Part shown: positions 9,939 through 55,944 of the stretch, piece after piece
How positions within the stretch are numbered: position 1 is the stretch's first letter
Layout: the number at the start of each line of letters is the position of its first letter
Assembly (NCBI GenBank): GCA_964468585.1
Contig: CAYXTM010000007.1
Span: 3,346-67,345, forward strand
DNA: 64,000 nucleotides
From: an uncultured Thermoplasmatales archaeon
GTDB taxonomy: Archaea; Thermoplasmatota; Thermoplasmata; Thermoplasmatales; GCA-001856825
Direction of reading: 5' to 3'
Made by a program: the position numbers and the translations under genes
Notes under the pieces: model-generated
What the model was told of the DNA's origin: nothing
Databases searched by the model: none
Seen by the model: the letters and a program-made list of their open reading frames with translations, nothing else

Positions 9939-11078
9939 CTATTGTATTAACACATCTTTACCATACAATACCTTAGCAACCTCAGGTCTTATAATTTCAT
10001 CAGGAATAGTTTCTCCATTCTGCAACATTTCTCTAATCTTTGTTTGACTAATTATCATCCTTTCATTTACGTCATGCGGGCAAACTCTGTCCGAAGTTAT
10101 ACCTTTGCATTTCTTGCAGTAAAAAGTTTCCGTGAATTTCAGTGGCTTCACTCCTATGTCATATTTATCAAATATGGCATGTGCTGCATATGGATCATAA
10201 TATTTTCCCACCCCTGCTTGGTCCCTACCAACGATATAATGTGTTGCACCATAGTTTCTCCTTATTATTGCCAGGAATAATGCTGCTTTTGGTCCACCAT
10301 ATCTCATGGTAATGTTTAGCGGGGAGAAAACAACCTTGTCAGTCCTGTGGTAATTTTCTATTAATGCTTTATAAGATTCTATAATTACATTTGACTTATA
10401 ATCTCCCTTCTTTAGTCTTCCAACAACTATATGGATGAAAAGACCATCTATTTCCGGATTTTCCAGTGAAGATTTTTGGAGATATTCATGGGCCACATGC
10501 GGTGGGTTTCTAGCCTGATAAGCGGCTATCCCTTTCCAACCCCTCTTTGAGAATATATCTCGTATCTGAGACGGAGTGTTCTCTCCATAATTTTCATGAT
10601 TAACACCACTAAACAAGGTTACTTTACCTGAAAGGGCAAATTCAGTGTAACTATTGAAAATATCATTTACATTTGGATGCGCATTTTCGATGGTACCATA
10701 GACCTTTAAAGCAAATTCCTTCCTATTAATTTTAAATTTTTCCTCTATATTCAAAAAGCCATATACTTCCCCTTTTGGGTTCAATAGAAAAAGATCATCC
10801 CCATGTTTCATTTTCTTCCATGTTTCTTCATTTGTTGTATAAATTATAGGTATTGTCCATGGTAGTCCATTATTCAATGTATTATTATTTATAACTGAAG
10901 AAAATTCCTCTGAACCCTGAAAACTATCAAGAGGACTATATGCTCCTTCTGCTATCTTTACTGAATCAAGATAAAAATCTATAAAAGGTAAGTCAACAAT
11001 TCCCTTAACTTCATCCTTACCAGGTGCTTGAGCATTCGTGAATCTATTAACTAATTTTCCTCCATATGGAGTATTCAT
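9939..11078 (-). CDS. sat: sulfate adenylyltransferase
   Basis: PYGGKLVNR, YSPL..F, WTIPI, QARNPPHVAHE (RNP/HxxH), MRYGGP, HYIVGRDQAG, Zn site CKKC...CPH. Confidence 0.95.
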   Translation of the reverse strand: MNTPYGGKLVNRFTNAQAPGKDEVKGIVDLPFIDFYLDSVKIAEGAYSPLDSFQGSEEFSSVINNNTLNNGLPWTIPIIYTTNEETWKKMKHGDDLFLLNPKGEVYGFLNIEEKFKINRKEFALKVYGTIENAHPNVNDIFNSYTEFALSGKVTLFSGVNHENYGENTPSQIRDIFSKRGWKGIAAYQARNPPHVAHEYLQKSSLENPEIDGLFIHIVVGRLKKGDYKSNVIIESYKALIENYHRTDKVVFSPLNITMRYGGPKAALFLAIIRRNYGATHYIVGRDQAGVGKYYDPYAAHAIFDKYDIGVKPLKFTETFYCKKCKGITSDRVCPHDVNERMIISQTKIREMLQNGETIPDEIIRPEVAKVLYGKDVLIQ

Positions 11079-11198
11079 GTTGCGAGATTTTTGCTAACGT
11101 AATTAAGTTTATGCTAATTATATATAATTATTTAACCGCAAATTAACTATTAAATGGTCATTGAAAAGTTTTATTAAGCTTAATTAATTCCTTAGTCA

Positions 11199-11438
11199 AT
11201 GAGAAGGGAAATCTCTATAATTCTTATTTTTCTGGAGAGTATTATTGTTTACTTCATTGTTTCCAGATTGATATTGGGTCCACTGTTTCAAAAATTTTAT
11301 ACGGGCGATCCAGGGAGAGCTTTAGTGCCGTTTGCCACGTCATATATTTCCCTAGGCATAGCAGTTGCATATTTCACAATAACTCTCTTGATTTATCCAG
11401 TTTTGAAGTTCAGGGAGAAGGTGGTTTTGGATGAGTAA
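11199..11438 (+). CDS. small 2-TM protein, probable oxidase accessory subunit
   Basis: 79 aa with two hydrophobic helices. First gene of the operon; overlaps the subunit II start. Confidence 0.65.
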   Translation: MRREISIILIFLESIIVYFIVSRLILGPLFQKFYTGDPGRALVPFATSYISLGIAVAYFTITLLIYPVLKFREKVVLDE

Positions 11439-11868
11439 GAAGACGCTATATGAGGTTATTTGGTTGGTGGCTGTCATTGCGATTTTAGCTGGATCAGCAG
11501 TTGCGAATTTTCAATACACAACTAGTTCAAGCAAAGAAATAGCACAACCATATACTGGAGACCCAAGCGGTGTCGTTATCAACGTTACTGGCTACCAATG
11601 GGGATGGCAATTCCAATATTCAAATGGAACAGTAACTACAGATAAATTAATACTTCAGGCCAATGTGACATATACTTTGGTAGTAACTTCCAAGGACGTC
11701 ATTCATGACCTATACATTCCGCAGTTTGGCCTCCAGGTGTATGCTGTTTACGGTCATACGAACGTTGTATCATTCACTCCACTTATCCCAGGAACATATA
11801 TCATGGAGTGTGTTGAATATTGTGGCGAATACCATTATGAAATGAGGGGACTGGTGATAGTTCAATGA
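11431..11868 (+). CDS. heme-copper oxidase subunit II (CuA, single TM)
   Basis: GYQWGWQF, DVIH and the CuA motif CVEYCGEYHYEM. Confidence 0.93.
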   Translation: MSKKTLYEVIWLVAVIAILAGSAVANFQYTTSSSKEIAQPYTGDPSGVVINVTGYQWGWQFQYSNGTVTTDKLILQANVTYTLVVTSKDVIHDLYIPQFGLQVYAVYGHTNVVSFTPLIPGTYIMECVEYCGEYHYEMRGLVIVQ

Positions 11869-48857: not shown

Positions 48858-49415
48858 GTGCAATTTAAAGTATTTATGATCGGTATTCTCGCATTACTAG
48901 TGGTGATGAACATCCCGTTAGGGACCGTACACGCCCAATCTCAGGCTATTTTTCCTACAATATATTATACCACGTTCCAGGGGTATAATAACTCAATCAC
49001 AGACTTAAACTGGTATAATATTGTTTATCCTGTGATTTACAGTTCAAATTTTTCAACATACGATTGGAAGAAAAGTCCTCTAAAGGATTATATACTGTTC
49101 GATTACTCTCTCACAGGTCTTAATCCTTATGGAGCAGAATTTATATTTGCACTTGCCAGTATAGGTAATCTCACAGAAGCAAATGTGACCAAAGCATTTC
49201 AGGCAATAGCAAATCTTGACGCAACAGGCGATGGCTACACAAACCAGGAAAAACTTAATGCAGGAGCCCTTCCTGGATTTTATAATTCAACACCTACCAG
49301 CTTTAGCAACCCAACAGTTAGGGCATATTATGGGTATGCCTTTTCAGGTATAGTCATAGCCTCAGTTATAATCCTTTATTTTGCGTTCAATAGAAAGAAG
49401 GAAAGTAATGAATGA
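48858..49415 (+). CDS. secreted, C-terminally anchored hypothetical protein
   Basis: Signal peptide ending VHA-Q; Asn/Tyr/Thr-rich body; DATGDGYTNQE motif; C-terminal TM helix plus basic tail RKK. Confidence 0.75.
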   Translation: MQFKVFMIGILALLVVMNIPLGTVHAQSQAIFPTIYYTTFQGYNNSITDLNWYNIVYPVIYSSNFSTYDWKKSPLKDYILFDYSLTGLNPYGAEFIFALASIGNLTEANVTKAFQAIANLDATGDGYTNQEKLNAGALPGFYNSTPTSFSNPTVRAYYGYAFSGIVIASVIILYFAFNRKKESNE

Positions 49416-50445
49416 GCTAACTCTTAAAAGATTGAAAAATTATTTCTCTATTTATTACAAAAATTTTAATTATGAAATTAATGGTCTTAAGAATAGAGAA
49501 ATCGCATTTTCGCCATTTGACGGTTCCTCCATGATGAGACATGTTTCTTTCAGTGATCAAAATGAGTTGAAAAATGCTCTTACCCTAAATCCACCTCGTC
49601 ACTTCTTCTACTCCAGCGCTTATTATGAAAACCCTACTGACGAAGATCTCTCTGAAACATGGATTGGGGCAGACTTGATCTTTGATATAGATGCAGATCA
49701 CATCCAAAATGCAGATAAGATGACAAAAAGGGAGATGCTTGGTGCTGTAAAAGGTGAGGTCAAGAAATTAATTTTCCTACTGGAAAATGATTTCGGTGTA
49801 GAAGAGAAGAATATGGAGTTGGTGTTTTCGGGGTCAAGGGGTTACCACATCCATGTCTATGATTTATTTACGGACCTAAATGCGGTTCAGAGAAGGGAAA
49901 TAGTAGATTACATAACTGGCAGATGTTTAACAAAACTGAAGGTCCTCAAAAAATCAAGGTGGGAGGACAGGGTCAAATATGAAACTGAAAAAATACTGAC
50001 AGAATTGAAGGACACCATGAAGAACAAGAAAGAAACTATTTATGAAGGGGAAAGATTCCAGAAATACAAGGGTTTTCCATCGGCTTCGGATGCGGAACGA
50101 ATAAGGAATATCGCAATAGGTCACGTTGTAAGGGCTTATGGATCCGCAATAGATGAACCTGTAACATTCGATGTTCACAGACTCATAAGAACTCCCATGA
50201 GCCTCCACGGGAAAAGTGGCCTGATTGCCAGTATTCTCAAGTTCGATGATCTGGAATCTTTTGACCCATTCGAATATGCAGTTCCCAATCAGTTCAAGGA
50301 AGTTTTCGTGAATGTCAAAGTCCTAAGGACAGTGAAGGATGATTTCACGGACAAAGAGGAAAGGATATCTGAAGGTGTACAAAAGATGCCTCTTCATAAA
50401 GCCATATACTTTTCATTATCAGGTGATGCAGAATTTCTTGAATGA
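49408..50445 (+). CDS. priS: DNA primase small (catalytic) subunit
   Basis: RE.AF, RH, YSSAYY, DLIFDIDAD, FSGSRGYH, IDEPVT.D..RLIR.P.SLHGK. Confidence 0.95.
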   Translation: MNELTLKRLKNYFSIYYKNFNYEINGLKNREIAFSPFDGSSMMRHVSFSDQNELKNALTLNPPRHFFYSSAYYENPTDEDLSETWIGADLIFDIDADHIQNADKMTKREMLGAVKGEVKKLIFLLENDFGVEEKNMELVFSGSRGYHIHVYDLFTDLNAVQRREIVDYITGRCLTKLKVLKKSRWEDRVKYETEKILTELKDTMKNKKETIYEGERFQKYKGFPSASDAERIRNIAIGHVVRAYGSAIDEPVTFDVHRLIRTPMSLHGKSGLIASILKFDDLESFDPFEYAVPNQFKEVFVNVKVLRTVKDDFTDKEERISEGVQKMPLHKAIYFSLSGDAEFLE

Positions 50446-51508: not shown

Positions 51509-53320
51509 TCAGTCATCCTGTGGTATATCCCTGCTCCTGATTCTGTTTTTTACCGCTATTCCAATTTTGAAATCTCTAATTTCAATCGGGCTCAACAGCA
51601 ACCTCCCAAAAGATATCAGATTATCGTCCTCGTCCACTATAAGAACCTCATCTCCGGGTCTAAGGGATTCATCCACGTTCAATATGAATTTTGAGAATAC
51701 GTTTTTACCATCCCTTATGAACTTGGATATTTCTTTGCTGACTGTCACCCTCAATCTTGGTTTATTTAAATTTTCATGGAGCAATTTCGCTCCTTCCATA
51801 GTGAGAGAAAATAATCCGTCCTCCGCTCTGAGTGATACAAGCAACTTTTCATTAACGAATAGATTCCTTAACTTTCCCGTATTCTTTGAAATCCTAAGTG
51901 TTATGGTATTTTTATCAACCAGGGAGAAGAGCTCTATACCAAATTGATACTTGAAGATATAATTGGCTTTCTTTTTTAAGAATTCAAGCCATTCCTCCGA
52001 TTCAATGATGGATTTATTTCTCTCTTTCTGATAAATTTCTGTTGGAAAGACGGACTGAGCGACGGGATATGTTTCATCCAGAAATATGTTAATGATACCA
52101 AAGGGGGTTTTAACAAACCCTTCATGGGGACCATGATAGTAAGAATATGGTTTCTTTTCGACCTGTATTGGCTTTATATGTGGGTCCATGATAGTTTCTT
52201 TTTCAACGAATCTCTTGATAAGCGGCCTTTGCAGAGTTTCGTCACCTGTATAGAATATTGGAGATCTTTTTGATCTTGACTCAAACTTTTCCAAATAGGC
52301 ATAATATGAGAGTAACTTCCTATAAGCTCCCAATAGTAGTGGATGTGACCTAGATCTATATTCAGCATAATTCCAAAGATTTTCCTGTTTTATCTCTTCT
52401 TTTATCCTTTTTATCTCTTTCTGTGAAATGTAAAGGTTGTGCTTGCCTATAACCTCTACCCTTTCCTTCTCATCTGCCGCTCTAAGTTCCTTTAATGTGA
52501 ATTTATCAAGGTAAATGGACTGTGGAAGCTCTTCAGAAACAAATTTGAGTTCGACTGTGCCTTCGGTAGTCAGAATTCTTCCATCCCTGGCATATTTGAT
52601 ATATGCCGAGGAGTCAAAAACGTCTGCACCGCTTAATACCAGCAGTGGGAAAAACATGGGATGACCTGCGCCAAATGCATGTATAACCGAATTAGTTCGT
52701 AGTTCCATCTTCGAAATAATAATTGAATCAATTACTGACGCATAGTCATAGTTTTCCATAAGAGGCACAATACCTCCAATTGGGTAATATTCATTATCAA
52801 TGCTTCCCATCAACTTTGCACTTTTTGCCCTTAGGTCACTATATTTTCCACCCTGTATGGGTAGAGAGAGGTATCCTTTTGTGAGGGATCTTGCTTCCAA
52901 AGCCCTATTGTATGTTTCTATAATACCATTCTCAACCTGCTCCCATGAATCATCAGGAAGTGAAAATACGTCCCTGATAGTAATAATATCAGAACCGATA
53001 GAGTCCTGGTATGTGACCATTTCTTTATTATCTGCCTTTATTCCCCCATAGACATAATCCTGGAATGTACCGGAATCAGTCATTATAAGCCCATCAAAGC
53101 CCAATTTGGTATGAATATCCTGCCCCTCAAAGTGTTTTTTATAGAGAATATATGAGTTAGTTATGATACCCTCAAAACCTAGTTCCTTGGAGAATGAGAC
53201 CCAAGGTTCGCTTAAAAAAGGGTGAATTACTGGCAAGAGTGCAGGAGTAGTGAGTTTCCTGTTATTGACAATTAACTCTCCAATCCTGGCAAGACCATCC
53301 CTATGCAAAATTTGAAACAT
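51509..53320 (-). CDS. tgtA: archaeosine tRNA-guanine(15) transglycosylase with a C-terminal PUA domain
   Basis: DGLARIG, TP.LLPV, MTDSGTFQ, PIGGIVPLME, HAFGAGHP, DVFDS; PUA G.NVF.KF...D..LRPGDEV. Confidence 0.94.
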   Translation of the reverse strand: MFQILHRDGLARIGELIVNNRKLTTPALLPVIHPFLSEPWVSFSKELGFEGIITNSYILYKKHFEGQDIHTKLGFDGLIMTDSGTFQDYVYGGIKADNKEMVTYQDSIGSDIITIRDVFSLPDDSWEQVENGIIETYNRALEARSLTKGYLSLPIQGGKYSDLRAKSAKLMGSIDNEYYPIGGIVPLMENYDYASVIDSIIISKMELRTNSVIHAFGAGHPMFFPLLVLSGADVFDSSAYIKYARDGRILTTEGTVELKFVSEELPQSIYLDKFTLKELRAADEKERVEVIGKHNLYISQKEIKRIKEEIKQENLWNYAEYRSRSHPLLLGAYRKLLSYYAYLEKFESRSKRSPIFYTGDETLQRPLIKRFVEKETIMDPHIKPIQVEKKPYSYYHGPHEGFVKTPFGIINIFLDETYPVAQSVFPTEIYQKERNKSIIESEEWLEFLKKKANYIFKYQFGIELFSLVDKNTITLRISKNTGKLRNLFVNEKLLVSLRAEDGLFSLTMEGAKLLHENLNKPRLRVTVSKEISKFIRDGKNVFSKFILNVDESLRPGDEVLIVDEDDNLISFGRLLLSPIEIRDFKIGIAVKNRIRSRDIPQDD

Positions 53321-53365: not shown

Positions 53366-53647
53366 CTACTTGGATAGCACTATTTCAATGGCAGAAACGT
53401 TGCGCTCGCCGTTTTCTCTCTGGACTTTTTCTGTAGATATCCTTACATCTTTGTATTTGATCTCTGTTTTCATCATGTCTTCCATTCTTTTCCTTATGAT
53501 CTCAGCAACGTCTACTGCCCTCTTTATTGCCATTCCCCTTGCCTTAATAACGACTTCATCTGCGCCGTTTCCAAAAAGCATTATACCATTGAAGGCATAG
53601 GAATCGGCTGGTCTCTGACCTACATAGATAACATTGTTCTCTGCCAC
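53366..53647 (-). CDS. albA: DNA/RNA-binding protein Alba
   Basis: V.IKARG.AI.RAVDVAE, NVSAIEI.L. GTG start at 53647 with SD GGTGA. Confidence 0.93.
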   Translation of the reverse strand: MAENNVIYVGQRPADSYAFNGIMLFGNGADEVVIKARGMAIKRAVDVAEIIRKRMEDMMKTEIKYKDVRISTEKVQRENGERNVSAIEIVLSK

Positions 53648-53761
53648 GTTAATCACCAGTGTGCAGAAATAAGAATAAGATATTAAAATTTACTCATCAT
53701 CTTGGGGTATAATTAAAATACATTAAGATAAATTATAAGTAATTATTTTAAATTTGAAATT

Positions 53762-53980
53762 ATGGCTGAAGAAAAAAAATACACAACAGTTTCCATACCT
53801 ACTCCTTTGTTTGAAAAAATTCAGAAGAAAATCGAGGGAACAGGGTTCACGTCAGTAAGTGATTATGTGACCTTTGTATTGAGAGAAATTCTTGCACACA
53901 GTAATGATCAGGAGGCATTTACGGAAGAAGATGAAAAAAAGGTCAAGGAGAGACTAAAATCATTGGGTTATCTAGACTGA
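53762..53980 (+). CDS. ribbon-helix-helix (CopG-like) protein with an acidic linker and C-terminal ERLKSLGYLD tail
   Basis: YTTVSIP beta-ribbon, helix, then GFTSVSDYV..VLRE helix; tail EEDEKKVKERLKSLGYLD. Confidence 0.88.
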   Translation: MAEEKKYTTVSIPTPLFEKIQKKIEGTGFTSVSDYVTFVLREILAHSNDQEAFTEEDEKKVKERLKSLGYLD

Positions 53981-53984
53981 GTGG

Positions 53985-55382
53985 ATGAAGATGGAAAAGC
54001 TCCTTGTAATAGGTTTGGACTGCGCAGCACCAACTCTGATTTTTGATAAGCTGAAAGATCATTTACCGAACCTTACAAAAATGAGGGAGGAAGGAATTTG
54101 GGGTAATCTCCGTTCATGTGATCCTCCGATAACGGTTCCTGCATGGATGGTAATGGCAACAGGTAGAACACCTGGAGAACTGGGATTATATGGATTCAGA
54201 TCGAGGGACGGAAATTCTTACACAAAAATAAAAATACCCACTTCTAGAGATATCAAGTACGATAAGATATGGGACATCATTGGGAAGAGAAACAAGAAAA
54301 GTGTTGTTATCGCTGTTCCGCCTTCTTATCCACCCAAGCCATTACTTGGTCTTATGGTGACTGATTTCCTTACTCCGGGAAAGGATAAAGAATTCACATA
54401 TCCTCCCGGTTTGAAGAACGAGATTTTGGAAAAATATCCAGAATACGAATTTGATGTTAAATTTAGGAAGCCCGAGAAGGAAAAAATAATTGACGAAATA
54501 CATAGAATGACTGAAACAAGATTTAGAATGGCCATAGATTTCATGACCAATAAGGAATGGGACCTGTTCTTCTTTGTTGAGATTGGTATAGATAGAATAC
54601 ATCATTCATTCTGGAGGTATATTGACGAAACTCATCATCTCTATGAAAATAACCAGACTATGAAATCTAAATTCATCGATTATTTTGAAATGGTGGATAG
54701 GAAAATTGGAGAAATGCTTGAGAGAGTTGATGAGAATACTATTGTAATGGTCGTTTCTGACCATGGTGCAAAAGGAATGAAAGGAGCATTTGCAATAAAT
54801 CAGTGGTTGATACAGGAAGGGTATCTCAAGTTGAAGAACGATCAGGTAAAGCCAGGGTCTTCTCTGGAAGAGCTGGACGTGGATTGGGAACATACTAAGG
54901 CGTGGGCCTGGGGAGGGTATTATTCGCGTATATTCCTCAACATTAAGGGGAGAGAAGAAAAAGGTATAATAGATCCGAAAGATGTTAAACAGGAAATATC
55001 GATTCTAAAGGAAAAATTGAAATCTATAAAGGGACCAAATGGTGAAACATGGAATACAAAGGTATTTGAGCCTGAGGAACTCTACGAAACAGTGAATGGT
55101 GATCGGTCGGATCTTTTTGTATATTTTGATGATTTGAGCTGGAGAGCAGCAGGTACTTTGGGTTATGATTCGCTGTATCTTTTTGAAAATGATACTGGTC
55201 CTGATGATGCTGTCCATGACTATGATGGAATATATATCTTATACCGAAAAGGGAAGAAAGTGGGAAAGCACATAGATGAAACAATCTACAACGTTATGCC
55301 TACCATGCTTGATATATATTCAGTTAGAAACGTGACTAGATTGAAGGGAAAAGTAATGGAGGGGTTGAGATATGTCAAATAA
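53985..55382 (+). CDS. alkaline phosphatase superfamily enzyme (NPP/phosphodiesterase-like), cytoplasmic
   Basis: IGLD (metal Asp), PPITVPAW..MATG (Thr nucleophile), DRIHH, VSDHG, DDAVH. No signal peptide. Confidence 0.9.
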   Translation: MKMEKLLVIGLDCAAPTLIFDKLKDHLPNLTKMREEGIWGNLRSCDPPITVPAWMVMATGRTPGELGLYGFRSRDGNSYTKIKIPTSRDIKYDKIWDIIGKRNKKSVVIAVPPSYPPKPLLGLMVTDFLTPGKDKEFTYPPGLKNEILEKYPEYEFDVKFRKPEKEKIIDEIHRMTETRFRMAIDFMTNKEWDLFFFVEIGIDRIHHSFWRYIDETHHLYENNQTMKSKFIDYFEMVDRKIGEMLERVDENTIVMVVSDHGAKGMKGAFAINQWLIQEGYLKLKNDQVKPGSSLEELDVDWEHTKAWAWGGYYSRIFLNIKGREEKGIIDPKDVKQEISILKEKLKSIKGPNGETWNTKVFEPEELYETVNGDRSDLFVYFDDLSWRAAGTLGYDSLYLFENDTGPDDAVHDYDGIYILYRKGKKVGKHIDETIYNVMPTMLDIYSVRNVTRLKGKVMEGLRYVK

Positions 55383-55944
55383 TGAAGGTTTTGTTCTATG
55401 GTTCACGGGTCTCCCTGGTGCAGGGAAAACAACACTAGCCAACAAGATAAGTGAAATTTTGAAGGAAAAGGGTTATAGAGTTGAAATTCTCGATGGAGAT
55501 GAAATCAGGAAAGGTCTATCGAAGGATTTAGGTTTTAGTAAAGAAGACAGAGAAAAACACAATGAGCGTGTGATGTTTGTAGCAAAGATTCTTTCCAGAA
55601 ATGGTGTCATCACATTAGTTCCTTTAATCTCGCCATACAGAGAGATAAGAGAAAGGGCAAGGTCAGAAATTCCGAATTTCATAGAAGTTTACGTGAGATG
55701 CCCATTGGATGTTTTAATCAAACGTGACCCTAAGGGACTTTATAAAAAAGCATTGGCGGGAGAAATAAAAAATTTAACCGGACTACAGGATACATATGAA
55801 GAGCCAATTAATCCTGACATTGTTATAGATACGGATAAGTTGGATATACAGCAGAGTGTAGACCTTATTTTAAGGCACCTTAAGGAAAGAAATTTGTTGG
55901 ATGGAGTTAAATTTGATTCTGAAAATAATGGCGGCGAGAATTAA
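55372..55944 (+). CDS. cysC: adenylyl-sulfate (APS) kinase
   Basis: WFTGLPGAGKTT, LDGD.IR, LGFSKEDR, ISPY, RDPKGLY, TG..D.YEEP. Confidence 0.95.
   Translation: MSNNEGFVLWFTGLPGAGKTTLANKISEILKEKGYRVEILDGDEIRKGLSKDLGFSKEDREKHNERVMFVAKILSRNGVITLVPLISPYREIRERARSEIPNFIEVYVRCPLDVLIKRDPKGLYKKALAGEIKNLTGLQDTYEEPINPDIVIDTDKLDIQQSVDLILRHLKERNLLDGVKFDSENNGGEN

Follow-up and report, generated by a model that had tools for sequence, protein, structure and literature searches.

A compact gene trio for sulfate activation

A tightly packed gene trio of an uncultured Thermoplasmatales archaeon raises the question of why a small protein, predicted to be a regulator of the ribbon-helix-helix (RHH) type, should end in a conserved tail that is found on enzymes, directly beside an AlkP-superfamily enzyme that lacks it. 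The first-pass annotation of the window, that is, of the whole 64,000-nucleotide stretch of DNA analyzed here, had seen in the trio a candidate new sulfur-transfer system in which the RHH protein provides the missing part of the enzyme in trans. We addressed the question by computation, identifying the genes, following the conserved operator through related loci and the tail through protein families, and predicting how the tail docks in the enzyme.

The description of the three genes as tightly coupled was confirmed when the open reading frames were re-read in the sequence (Table 1). The RHH and AlkP genes are separated by 4 nt (53981-53984), and the AlkP gene overlaps cysC by 11 nt (55372-55382). 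The two protein ends are also as first given, FTEEDEKKVKERLKSLGYLD for the RHH protein and ...LKGKVMEGLRYVK for the 465-aa AlkP protein. An alternative ATG of the AlkP gene at 53991 matches the N-termini of its orthologues better, and the gap to the RHH gene is then 10 nt. The cysC gene has a GGAGG 13 nt upstream of its ATG, and its product matches PF01583 with an E-value of 4.6e-60 in a profile search and the equivalog-level model TIGR00455 with 232.8 bits (cut-off 138.7); the P-loop GLPGAGKTT is present in the translation. The sat gene that had been placed at 9939 does match ATP sulfurylase. The order RHH-AlkP-cysC recurs in 11 closely related loci (L003-L013, of which L010 ends before cysC) and in L075, and the arrangement is therefore not due to chance.

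Table 1. Features of the sulfate-activation locus in the window
Feature	Coordinates	Strand	Remarks
Sat (sulfate adenylyltransferase) gene	9939..11078	-	Unlinked, same predicted regulon; ATP-sulfurylase E 7.2e-82, PUA_2 E 1.4e-33
Operator sites 5' of sat	11115..11186	.	Perfect site TAATTATATATAATTA at 11115-11130; 1-mismatch site at 11171-11186
Operator array, RHH operon promoter	53710..53755	.	Five half-sites, 10-bp spacing
RHH gene	53762..53980	+	72 aa, CopG-type; predicted autoregulator of sulfate-activation genes
RHH C-terminal tail	53918..53977	+	Residues 53-72, FTEEDEKKVKERLKSLGYLD; mobile module, also on other proteins
AlkP-superfamily enzyme gene	53985..55382	+	465 aa, cytoplasmic, NPP-type; predicted nucleophile Thr50
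CysC (adenylyl-sulfate/APS kinase) gene	55372..55944	+	190 aa; PF01583, TIGR00455

The trio is a shortened version of a known cluster

The claim of a new system did not survive comparison with the literature, as the cluster is already drawn and described. According to the accessible parts of the corresponding papers, PYCH_17520-17560 of Pyrococcus yayanosii encode a 'putative copG transcription factor' (PYCH_17520), an ATP sulfurylase, a DHH pApase, a type I phosphodiesterase/nucleotide pyrophosphatase and an APS kinase (PMC8268124). The corresponding cluster of Thermococcus onnurineus is TON_1704-1707 (PMC4463584). Here the enzyme at the AlkP position, TON_1705, is the pyrophosphatase and has a measured activity, with reported values of 2.1 per s for kcat and 18.8 uM for Km (PMC9653972). 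The authors of the P. yayanosii study state that neither a sulfotransferase nor a sulfite-to-sulfide enzyme is identified for this organism (PMC8268124).

The trio is a reduced form of this copG-sat-DHH pApase-AlkP-cysC cluster. Orthologues of the AlkP gene sit between the DHH pApase gene and cysC, and the window keeps both the AlkP-cysC adjacency and the RHH leader. Compared to the Pyrococcus and Thermococcus cluster, sat lies 44 kb away on the opposite strand, and a DHH pApase gene was not found in this genome. A 45-52% identical AlkP gene is present in 52 of 101 genomes from the same class as G001, and all six loci fetched at this level read RHH-sat-DHH-AlkP-cysC, with RHH proteins 69-72% and AlkP enzymes 49-51% identical to those of the window. 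Judged by position and identity only, the AlkP enzyme is likely to be the orthologue of TON_1705 and PYCH_17550. Within the accessible text of the two cluster papers, the copG protein is a putative regulator and the enzyme degrades pyrophosphate, with no mention of the tail, of the operator or of the exclusion of sulfotransferases described below (PMC8268124, PMC4463584).

A further point of comparison is Methanothermococcus thermolithotrophicus, which also combines an ATP sulfurylase and an APS kinase with a DHH-family PAP phosphatase, and in which fast removal of pyrophosphate is needed for the sulfurylase to run, as reported in the part of the paper available (PMC10322725). In this organism the pathway runs on through PAPS reductase and sulfite reductase, neither of which was found in the genome studied here. 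The words CopG, ribbon and phosphodiesterase are absent from the text of that paper.

The AlkP enzyme is of the NPP type

The 465-aa enzyme matches PF01663 over the whole profile (positions 1-342 of 342; E-value 1.1e-48, 167 bits, cut-off 23), and no sulfotransferase family, Sulfotransfer_1/3 included, appears among its profile matches. D12, T50, D203, H207, D259, H260 and H411 are invariant among 56 sequences. The roles of nucleophile and metal ligands that we give to the invariant Thr, Asp and His residues are assumed from knowledge of NPPs rather than derived from structural superposition. The AlphaFold2 model of the enzyme has a mean pLDDT of 95.3, and its best Foldseek hits are ENPP1, ENPP3, autotaxin, ENPP6 and the Xanthomonas NPP (E-values of about 4e-18, probability 1.00, TM-scores of 0.55-0.61 on the query). 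The predicted enzyme shares with these proteins the fold, a Thr nucleophile and Asp/His residues as ligands of the metals. It differs from them in being only 12-16% identical and cytoplasmic, with no visible signal peptide, and in its large inserts and its sulfate-activation context. A search of the PDB by sequence returned no match, and a search of the literature on COG3379 gave nothing relevant.

A repeated operator precedes the RHH gene and sat

The sequence matches behind the ribbon-helix-helix assignment of the 72-aa protein are weak. The NikR N-terminal model is matched with an E-value of 0.0018, far under the cut-off of the model, and NikR chains with E-values of 0.17-0.2 over residues 9-53; no Pfam RHH model is found at E <= 0.1. 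The protein is widespread, as is the gene cluster that it heads: we retrieved 654 relatives of the protein, a relative of the gene was confirmed at no fewer than 414 places in scanned species genomes, and the gene was found in 79 of 251 sampled genomes of the phylum. An alignment of 23 sequences from several phyla has 25 invariant columns. Of 77 related loci, 49 have sat immediately 3' of the RHH gene.

The promoter of the RHH gene contains a repeated operator, which we predict to be the binding site of the protein itself. Its half-sites are TAATTA at 53710, ACATTA at 53720, AAATTA at 53730, TAATTA at 53740 and AAATTT at 53750. Among 56 loci, 48 carry TAATTA-N4-TAATTA with at most one mismatch in the 120 nt 5' of the RHH gene, and in 26 of these 48 it is perfect; the 56 are the loci, out of 80, with a complete plus-strand ORF of less than 130 aa containing TGFTS, and the other 24 were dropped. 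The operators form arrays of 3-5 half-sites in 10-bp phase, and their density is approximately 2000-fold higher upstream of the gene (81 sites in 6,607 nt) than elsewhere (3 in 524,800 nt). The conserved operator lends independent support to the RHH assignment, and both the operator and its conservation are new elements of the cluster.

The signal is confined to perfect and promoter-placed sites. When two mismatches are allowed, the operator is not enriched in the whole window (12 matches, 15.7 expected), and the 28 genome-wide matches with at most one mismatch are inside the range of 14-32 obtained from five Markov simulations of the genome. None of these simulations produced a perfect site. 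The genome has four of them, including the sole one in the window, 37 nt before sat, and one 24 nt before the gene for a TauE permease. The other two, one before a Fur-like gene and one near V-ATPase genes, look like chance occurrences.

The LGY tail recurs on proteins tied to sulfate activation

The tail of the RHH protein is a module that is shared with other proteins. F53, E58, K62, R64, L65, L68, G69 and Y70 are invariant in the 23-sequence RHH alignment, and 82 tailed RHH ORFs are found in 80 loci. Among the 32 weakest matches of the 'longer' search, 20 are proteins of PF01663, PF00884 or PF01676 and 11 are APS kinases. The E-values of these matches range from 0.0018 to 9.6, none of them significant taken singly, and the 21 that we read are matches to the tail alone; the argument for a module therefore rests on the make-up of the families and on the sequences read. 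The tail forms the very C-terminus in all 18 AlkP/sulfatase-type proteins fetched, in agreement with the earlier statement of an E-rich ...ERL.ALGY ending on such proteins, and in all three APS kinases. In both groups the identity along the tail is about 60-100%. It is also present on CysD-like proteins, which makes it a C-terminal module of no fewer than four unrelated families, each linked to sulfate activation. A full-text search of the literature did not find 'RLRALGY' anywhere.

The adjacent AlkP enzyme does lack the tail, as had been noticed, and so do its best 120 orthologues, which are 447-476 aa long. The further idea that the tail is the missing part of this enzyme fails, since the same tailed RHH protein heads operons without an AlkP orthologue and the tail is found on APS kinases and CysD-like proteins too. 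The expected co-occurrence holds in one direction, with 17 of the 19 genomes that have an AlkP orthologue also having the RHH-LGY gene, and breaks down in the other, with 62 of 79 RHH-positive genomes devoid of AlkP. At the level of loci, 54 of 80 have no AlkP orthologue, although some of these loci are incomplete. As a sole reading, supply in trans of a tail that the enzyme has lost is thus rejected, because the RHH protein keeps its tail in all these loci and genomes.

Predicted docking of the tail in the enzyme cleft

The first-pass annotation had proposed modeling the complex and looking for the tail tyrosine near the Thr/metal site, and this is where the model puts it. Three runs of the RHH tail with the AlkP enzyme scored 0.81, 0.79 and 0.82, while the best of three controls scored 0.02. 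In calibration, 58 of 80 solved complexes and 2 of 110 mismatched pairs reach the mark used for docking. At least 93% of the contacts agree between runs, and the pLDDT of the partner is at least 68. The modeled interface comprises RHH residues 50-72, with Tyr70 in contact with T50, G70, F71, R72 and G311 of the enzyme, and it also includes H207, R204 and D157. The result is not a memory of a known complex, because there is no solved relative by sequence. The model supports, without proving, that the tail occupies the AlkP cleft and that its Tyr70 abuts the nucleophile Thr50. Such a predicted link from tail to active site is a previously undescribed feature of a known cluster.

Proteins with an RHH unit and a further C-terminal element are well known. 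In NikR the C-terminal extension is a metal-sensing domain, and Mnt of phage P22 is an RHH protein with a C-terminal tetramerization helix. The protein described here would resemble both in combining a predicted N-terminal RHH unit, weakly similar in sequence to that of NikR, with a C-terminal element that sets activity or oligomeric state. Unlike in NikR and Mnt, its extension is 20 residues long, is also carried by enzymes and is modeled in an enzyme active site, rather than forming a sensor domain or a bundle.

We propose that the locus is an archaeal operon for the conversion of sulfate to PAPS, controlled by an RHH repressor whose tail docks in the AlkP enzyme, and we give this reading about an even chance (roughly 50%). 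The trio would be the core of the operon, with CysC converting APS to PAPS. The repressor would bind the 10-bp-spaced TAATTA arrays at its own promoter and at the unlinked sat promoter, and probably also before the gene for the tauE-type anion permease, and would therefore control the whole pathway. The AlkP enzyme would be an NPP-type hydrolase that splits pyrophosphate, as reported for TON_1705, and in this way would drive the ATP-sulfurylase reaction in the forward direction. In the RHH protein, a separate module would be formed by the acidic linker and the LGY tail. The tail would most likely lie in the substrate cleft of the enzyme as a pseudosubstrate, with Tyr70 beside Thr50 and the metal site, and occupancy of the enzyme would set the amount of regulator that is free for DNA. 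Repression, the direction of the feedback and the regulatory rather than catalytic nature of docking are what we infer here. If the tail is a pseudosubstrate, the operon would couple its repressor in an unusual manner to how far an enzyme of the pathway is occupied. The AlkP enzyme cannot be the only partner of the tail, because the RHH protein retains it where no AlkP orthologue is present.

The tail may instead be an oligomerization helix, holding RHH dimers together along the phased operator, the enzyme being only the pyrophosphatase of the pathway and the docking a false positive. The helix of Mnt offers a precedent, arrays of 3-5 half-sites in 10-bp phase would suit cooperative binding by several dimers, the tail is conserved with or without AlkP, and a few mismatched pairs did reach the docking mark. 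However, a repressor helix is not expected at the end of APS kinases and AlkP/sulfatase-type enzymes at such levels of identity, and none of the three complex controls exceeded 0.02. We consider this explanation unlikely.

Two mutually exclusive operon types

The AlkP gene and a gene for a P-loop sulfotransferase occupy the same slot beside cysC, in 26 and 29 loci, respectively, and no locus out of 80 has both. Similarly, of the 251 genomes sampled from the phylum, 19 have AlkP, 55 have the sulfotransferase and none has both. The sulfotransferase is absent from all five AlkP-type genomes, and the AlkP orthologue from all five sulfotransferase-type genomes. A tree of cysC, built from 63 rows after dropping loci in which no cysC match reached 150 residues, requires at least four switches between AlkP and sulfotransferase, some of them inside well-supported clades. 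A role as pyrophosphatase only leaves this exclusion unexplained.

The AlkP-type clusters encode no user of the PAPS that is made. In the window, the absence of a PAPS reductase and of a classical sulfotransferase had been noted, and it extends to the genome, where no gene for a PAPS reductase, sulfite reductase (NIR_SIR) or Sulfotransfer_1/3 protein was found at 89.8% completeness; the PF01507 matches are TtuA and ThiI. A link to sulfosugars, considered on account of an NAD-epimerase-like gene beside AlkP in L107 and L108, was discarded, as this genome contains only a generic relative with 25-29% identity.

These data bear on a second alternative, in which the AlkP enzyme is the missing consumer of PAPS or APS, a sulfuryl-transfer enzyme with a Thr nucleophile, Tyr70 is the acceptor or a covalent sulfo-carrier, and the P-loop sulfotransferase does the same job elsewhere. 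Besides the mutual exclusion and the repeated switches, it would account for the retention of a PAP phosphatase in AlkP-type operons that encode no PAPS user, and it fits the modeled contact of Tyr70 with Thr50 as well as the database protein P0251, which reads as an RHH-tail fused to a sulfotransferase. Against it, we know of no PAPS-dependent sulfotransferase in the AlkP superfamily, and the Tyr has basic neighbors (RLRALGY), unlike known tyrosine-sulfation sites. The sole activity measured for the family, in the published text accessible to us, is pyrophosphate hydrolysis. Moreover, the RHH protein is the only tailed protein of this genome (1 of 3030 ORFs), and a pathway for sulfating nothing but its own regulator would be of little use; the exclusivity may also stem from two old operon types, related genomes not being independent. 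We therefore regard it as quite improbable. Equally doubtful is the broader proposal that the tail Tyr is a handle for activated sulfate, to which AlkP, or the sulfotransferase that replaces it, would move the sulfuryl group of PAPS, the PAPS supply being read or relayed through cytoplasmic tyrosine O-sulfation. If true, it would be a first both for a PAPS-dependent sulfotransferase with the AlkP fold and for archaeal sulfotyrosine signaling, and a tail that serves as substrate would mean new chemistry. Together, the operator, the tail common to four families and the confidently modeled placement of Tyr on Thr make the gap left by the missing PAPS user testable.

Other carriers of the tail

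A link between regulator and enzyme alone leaves unexplained the presence of the tail on APS kinases, CysD-like and sulfatase-like proteins. Its carriers suggest a last alternative, that of a docking tag gathering the regulator, APS kinase, CysD and AlkP- or sulfatase-type enzymes on a hub or on each other, with AlkP as one of several receptors. Short conserved terminal peptides on flexible linkers, common to unrelated proteins of a pathway, are familiar from encapsulation or cargo-loading peptides and from pseudosubstrate tails. The likeness is one of analogy only: the loci read showed no genes for a shell or compartment, and the modeled receptor is a catalytic cleft. A tag would explain why one 20-residue module is C-terminal in so many unrelated families and stays conserved in AlkP-less operons, yet we give it little credence, as no gene besides that of the RHH protein is common to all 80 loci, which leaves no obvious candidate for a hub, and tail-to-tail assembly is impossible in this genome because only the RHH protein carries the tail. 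The APS kinases, which speak for a tag, have the tail added after a linker, behind a similar ...LEELGYL helix of their own. In the model of the tailed paralogue P0285, a disordered linker precedes the tail, which is a helix with a pLDDT of about 83.

The trio is a reduced form of a known sulfate-activation cluster

The genes for the ribbon-helix-helix (RHH) protein, the NPP-type AlkP enzyme and the APS kinase CysC are as tightly coupled as the first-pass annotation proposed, with a 4-nt gap between the first two, an 11-nt overlap between the last two and a GGAGG motif 13 nt upstream of the kinase start codon. Such translational coupling would yield matched amounts of the three proteins. All three ORFs were confirmed, as was the identity of sat. 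The 465-aa protein covers the entire PF01663 model (E 1.1e-48). For the 190-aa protein, PF01583 (E 4.6e-60) and TIGR00455 (232.8 bits against a cut-off of 138.7) identify an APS kinase, and for the 72-aa protein the RHH-type matches are weak (NikR N-terminal model, E 0.0018; NikR chains, E 0.17-0.2). The host archaeal genome (1.31 Mb, 89.8% complete) carries one RHH gene and one PF01663 gene.

Features of the window; the three upstream neighbours carry identities that we presume from the look of their translations
Feature	Position	Strand	Remarks
Sat	9939-11078	-	
Operator sites before sat	11115-11186		perfect and 1-mismatch copy
Cupredoxin / cytochrome c oxidase subunit II-like gene	11431-11868	+	PF00116, E 4e-12; divergent from sat
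Primase-like protein (presumed)	49381-50445	+	upstream neighbour
Archaeosine tRNA-guanine transglycosylase-like protein (presumed)	51509-53320	-	603 aa; upstream neighbour
Alba-like chromatin protein (presumed)	53366-53656	-	upstream neighbour
RHH promoter half-sites	53710-53755		five, in 10-bp phase
RHH gene	53762-53980	+	72 aa
AlkP enzyme gene	53985-55382	+	465 aa
APS kinase gene	55372-55944	+	190 aa

The PF00116 gene beside sat suggests that this small genome encodes an aerobic respiratory chain.

The trio had been proposed as a new system. The available sections of two papers already describe the cluster, as five genes in Pyrococcus yayanosii (PMC8268124) and in Thermococcus as TON_1704 (APS kinase), TON_1705 (pyrophosphatase), TON_1706 (PAP phosphatase) and TON_1707 (ATP sulfurylase) (PMC4463584, which refers to Lee et al. 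2009, J Bacteriol 191:3415). We equated the window's AlkP enzyme by position with TON_1705 of Thermococcus onnurineus and PYCH_17550 of P. yayanosii. The assayed activity is also known: in a table in the accessible part of PMC9653972, TON_1705 works best at pH 9.5 and has kcat 2.1 per s and Km 18.8 uM. According to the available sections of PMC8268124, a sulfotransferase adjoins the cluster in other archaea, and neither a sulfotransferase nor a sulfite-to-sulfide enzyme was identified for P. yayanosii. Unlike the published cluster, the window has sat 44 kb away, and homology queries of its 89.8%-complete genome found no DHH pApase homologue. The operator, the mobile tail, the modelled insertion of the tail into the active site and the strict AlkP/sulfotransferase exclusion, all described below, are absent from the available sections of the cited papers and from the other literature found, supplements and the primary TON_1705 paper aside.

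A conserved operator points to a small regulon

Scanning one genome per species returned at least 599 stretches matching the search patterns; at least 414 encode an RHH relative, and the best 80 of these loci were examined. The regions upstream of the RHH gene have in common TAATTA-N4-TAATTA, often in tandem. We counted this operator in 56 of the best 80 of at least 414 loci, an ORF filter having left out 24. Within this set, a copy with at most one mismatch lies within 120 nt of the RHH start in 48 of 56 loci, 26 of them with a perfect copy, and the upstream regions hold 81 sites in 6,607 nt against 3 in the other 524,800 nt. Bacterial loci retain it too (L068, Chloroflexota; L019, Actinomycetota). 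In archaeal loci it follows a TATA-like box and precedes the start codon, a position typical of archaeal repressor sites.

Within the 64 kb a single perfect 16-mer occurs, 37 nt upstream of the unlinked sat; the 1-mismatch copy is 56 nt further up. Genome-wide there are four perfect operators, and none in five simulated genomes; at looser thresholds, counts in the window and the whole genome are not above chance. Another of the four (G000:C3:13428, locus L083) lies 24 nt ahead of a gene for a TauE-family permease, behind which comes a DUF1634 gene. A DUF81/TauE gene also adjoins the Pyrococcus cluster in the available sections of PMC8268124. These sites point to a three-promoter regulon, and we read the RHH protein as a predicted DNA-binding autoregulator that would act on sat and probably on the permease gene besides its own operon. 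A further perfect site (G000:C6:68054), flanked by a 729-aa gene and the gene of a Fur-like regulator, is probably due to chance.

The LGY tail is a mobile module

The RHH protein ends in a conserved LGY tail (residues 53-72, including Tyr70). The protein has 654 relatives at E <= 1e-3, of which the best 120, at 61-100% identity, come from Thermoplasmatales, Aciduliprofundum, Thermococcus, Hydrothermarchaeota, Altiarchaeales and, beyond the archaea, Actinomycetota. Alignment of 23 relatives gives 25 invariant columns, among them F53, E58, K62, R64, L65, L68, G69 and Y70 of the tail.

AlkP/sulfatase-type proteins do carry such tails, as the first-pass annotation held: in all 18 AlkP-type sequences fetched, and in all three kinases, a variable linker leads to a C-terminal [FY][ST].E[DE]E.K[VI]KERL[RK][AS]LGY with 0-2 residues after it. 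In the kinases the tail is placed after their own, similar ...LEELGYL end. Among longer proteins the RHH profile had 68 hits, 36 with the entire RHH and tail. Most of these (about 30, P0242-P0275) are ~210-aa proteins with an additional N-terminal part, which in Bathyarchaeia-type proteins is RHH-like. Single fusions (P0241, P0251, P0269, P0276) join the unit to a sulfatase-like piece, a P-loop sulfotransferase, a Sat N-terminus and an AlkP piece; some fusion proteins may be gene-calling artefacts. The other 32 hits are weak (E 0.0018 to 9.6) and comprise 20 AlkP-superfamily proteins (PF01663, PF00884, PF01676), 11 APS kinases and one protein without family; those whose sequences were inspected match through the tail alone. 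In the best 80 of at least 414 loci, tail-type ends occur on 82 RHH ORFs, seven CysC and five CysD-like proteins. The CysC proteins, from loci other than the CysD-like ones, end in ...LKELGY[IVL]; the CysD-like proteins, which have a PAPS-reductase fold and follow RHH in L050, L058, L059, L067 and L070, end in ...QDKE..M.RLRALGY[MFW], much like the tail. The window's genome has it on the RHH protein only (1 of 3030 ORFs). Our literature search found no paper containing the motif.

Since it recurs on AlkP-type, kinase, CysD-like and RHH proteins, the tail is a C-terminal module that moves among proteins of the sulfate pathway and not, as first suggested, a piece missing from the enzyme. Tail-less orthologues are normal: of 8000 candidates scored, 6795 are relatives of the enzyme, and the best 120 span only 447-476 aa.

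The tail is modelled in the active site of the AlkP enzyme

Modelled with AF2 (mean pLDDT 95.3), the enzyme has an NPP fold, with ENPP1, ENPP3, autotaxin, ENPP6 and Xanthomonas NPP as best matches (E ~4e-18, TM 0.55-0.61) but just 12-16% identity to them; a PDB sequence search found no relative. All 56 orthologues compared have D12, T50, D203, H207, D259, H260 and H411. We modelled the enzyme with RHH residues 40-72, both as alignments. The complex scored 0.81 (runs 0.81, 0.79, 0.82), against 0.02 for the best of three controls; solved complexes attain this mark in 58 of 80 cases and mismatched pairs in 2 of 110, counts that are only approximate because own alignments were used. Contact agreement between runs was at least 93% and partner pLDDT at least 68. 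The modelled tail helix runs along I82/I84/S87 and F128-K135, with the C-terminal GYLD in the catalytic pocket. Tyr70 contacts T50, G70, F71, R72 and G311, and R204, H207 and D157 also belong to the interface. The model places the Tyr near the Thr/metal site, the outcome that the first-pass annotation had named as supportive, and speaks for a putative tail-enzyme binding. In a tailed paralogue, the tail helix is modelled at pLDDT ~83 after a disordered linker.

Building on the computed gene identities, operator conservation, tail spread and docking, we give about even odds (roughly 0.5) to a joint reading. The RHH protein would repress the sulfate-activation genes through TAATTA arrays, CysC would produce PAPS, and the AlkP enzyme would be an NPP-type hydrolase of the pathway, the activity measured in Thermococcus being on PPi. 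The regulator's tail would occupy the enzyme cleft as a pseudosubstrate, and enzyme occupancy would therefore be coupled to regulator availability. We infer the direction of this feedback, and that docking is regulatory rather than catalytic. That the tail is instead a Mnt-like oligomerisation helix and the docking a false positive is unlikely, although mismatched pairs occasionally score as high; the controls did not.

AlkP and sulfotransferase exclude each other

Of the best 80 of at least 414 loci, 77 extend 1 kb or more downstream; in these, RHH is immediately followed by sat in 49, an AlkP orthologue in 12, a cysD-like gene in eight, a distant AlkP-like gene in three, a sulfotransferase in two, a DHH gene in one and another gene in two. 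The commonest order in the best 80 is RHH, sat (or cysD-cysN), DHH (DHH/DHHA1 in Pfam), then either an AlkP orthologue or a ~190-aa P-loop sulfotransferase (Sulfotransfer_1/3), with cysC adjoining. In these 80 loci we found AlkP orthologues in 26, sulfotransferases in 29, both in none and neither in 25, many of the latter incomplete.

The same pattern holds in 251 genomes of the phylum. Tail-less AlkP was expected to track RHH, and it does in one direction: 17 of the 19 genomes with an AlkP orthologue have RHH, the other two having divergent 40-41% copies. The converse fails, as 62 of the 79 RHH genomes lack AlkP (50 have a sulfotransferase, 12 neither), so the tail cannot exist for this enzyme alone. 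AlkP and sulfotransferase never occur together (0 of 251; Fisher's test in RHH-positive genomes, p = 6.5e-10, overstated because related genomes are not independent), nor in whole-genome spot checks (0/5 and 0/5). The AlkP label has to change at least four times on a 63-row cysC tree, with swaps inside well-supported clades (L025 among DHVE2-group sulfotransferase loci; L061, L062 and L077 beside L076). In the class holding the genome of L031, a 45-52% identical AlkP gene occurs in 52 of 101 genomes, and all six loci fetched read RHH-sat-DHH-AlkP-cysC, the arrangement on which the positional match to TON_1705 and PYCH_17550 is based.

A plain pyrophosphatase role does not account for the way AlkP and sulfotransferase substitute for one another at one position in the cluster. 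The first-pass annotation had noted that the window lacks a PAPS reductase or classical sulfotransferase, and this extends to the whole 89.8%-complete genome: its only two PF01507 matches are TtuA and ThiI, NIR_SIR and Sulfotransfer_1/3 have none, and no other PAPS user was found. The enzyme could then be the missing PAPS user with Tyr70 as acceptor or carrier, which we consider improbable beside the pyrophosphatase activity assayed for TON_1705. Equally doubtful is that the tail serves as a general docking tag for further receptors, which would suit its spread beyond AlkP genomes.

In two Aciduliprofundum loci (L014, L018), RHH-sat-DHH-sulfotransferase-cysC is followed by genes for a multi-pass membrane protein of 447 aa and a protein of 211 aa, and lastly by a distant AlkP-like gene, 28% identical and broken off at the locus end. 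In two relatives without an RHH gene (L107, L108), a divergent AlkP orthologue (~40% identical) adjoins cysC and an NAD-epimerase/dehydratase-like gene.
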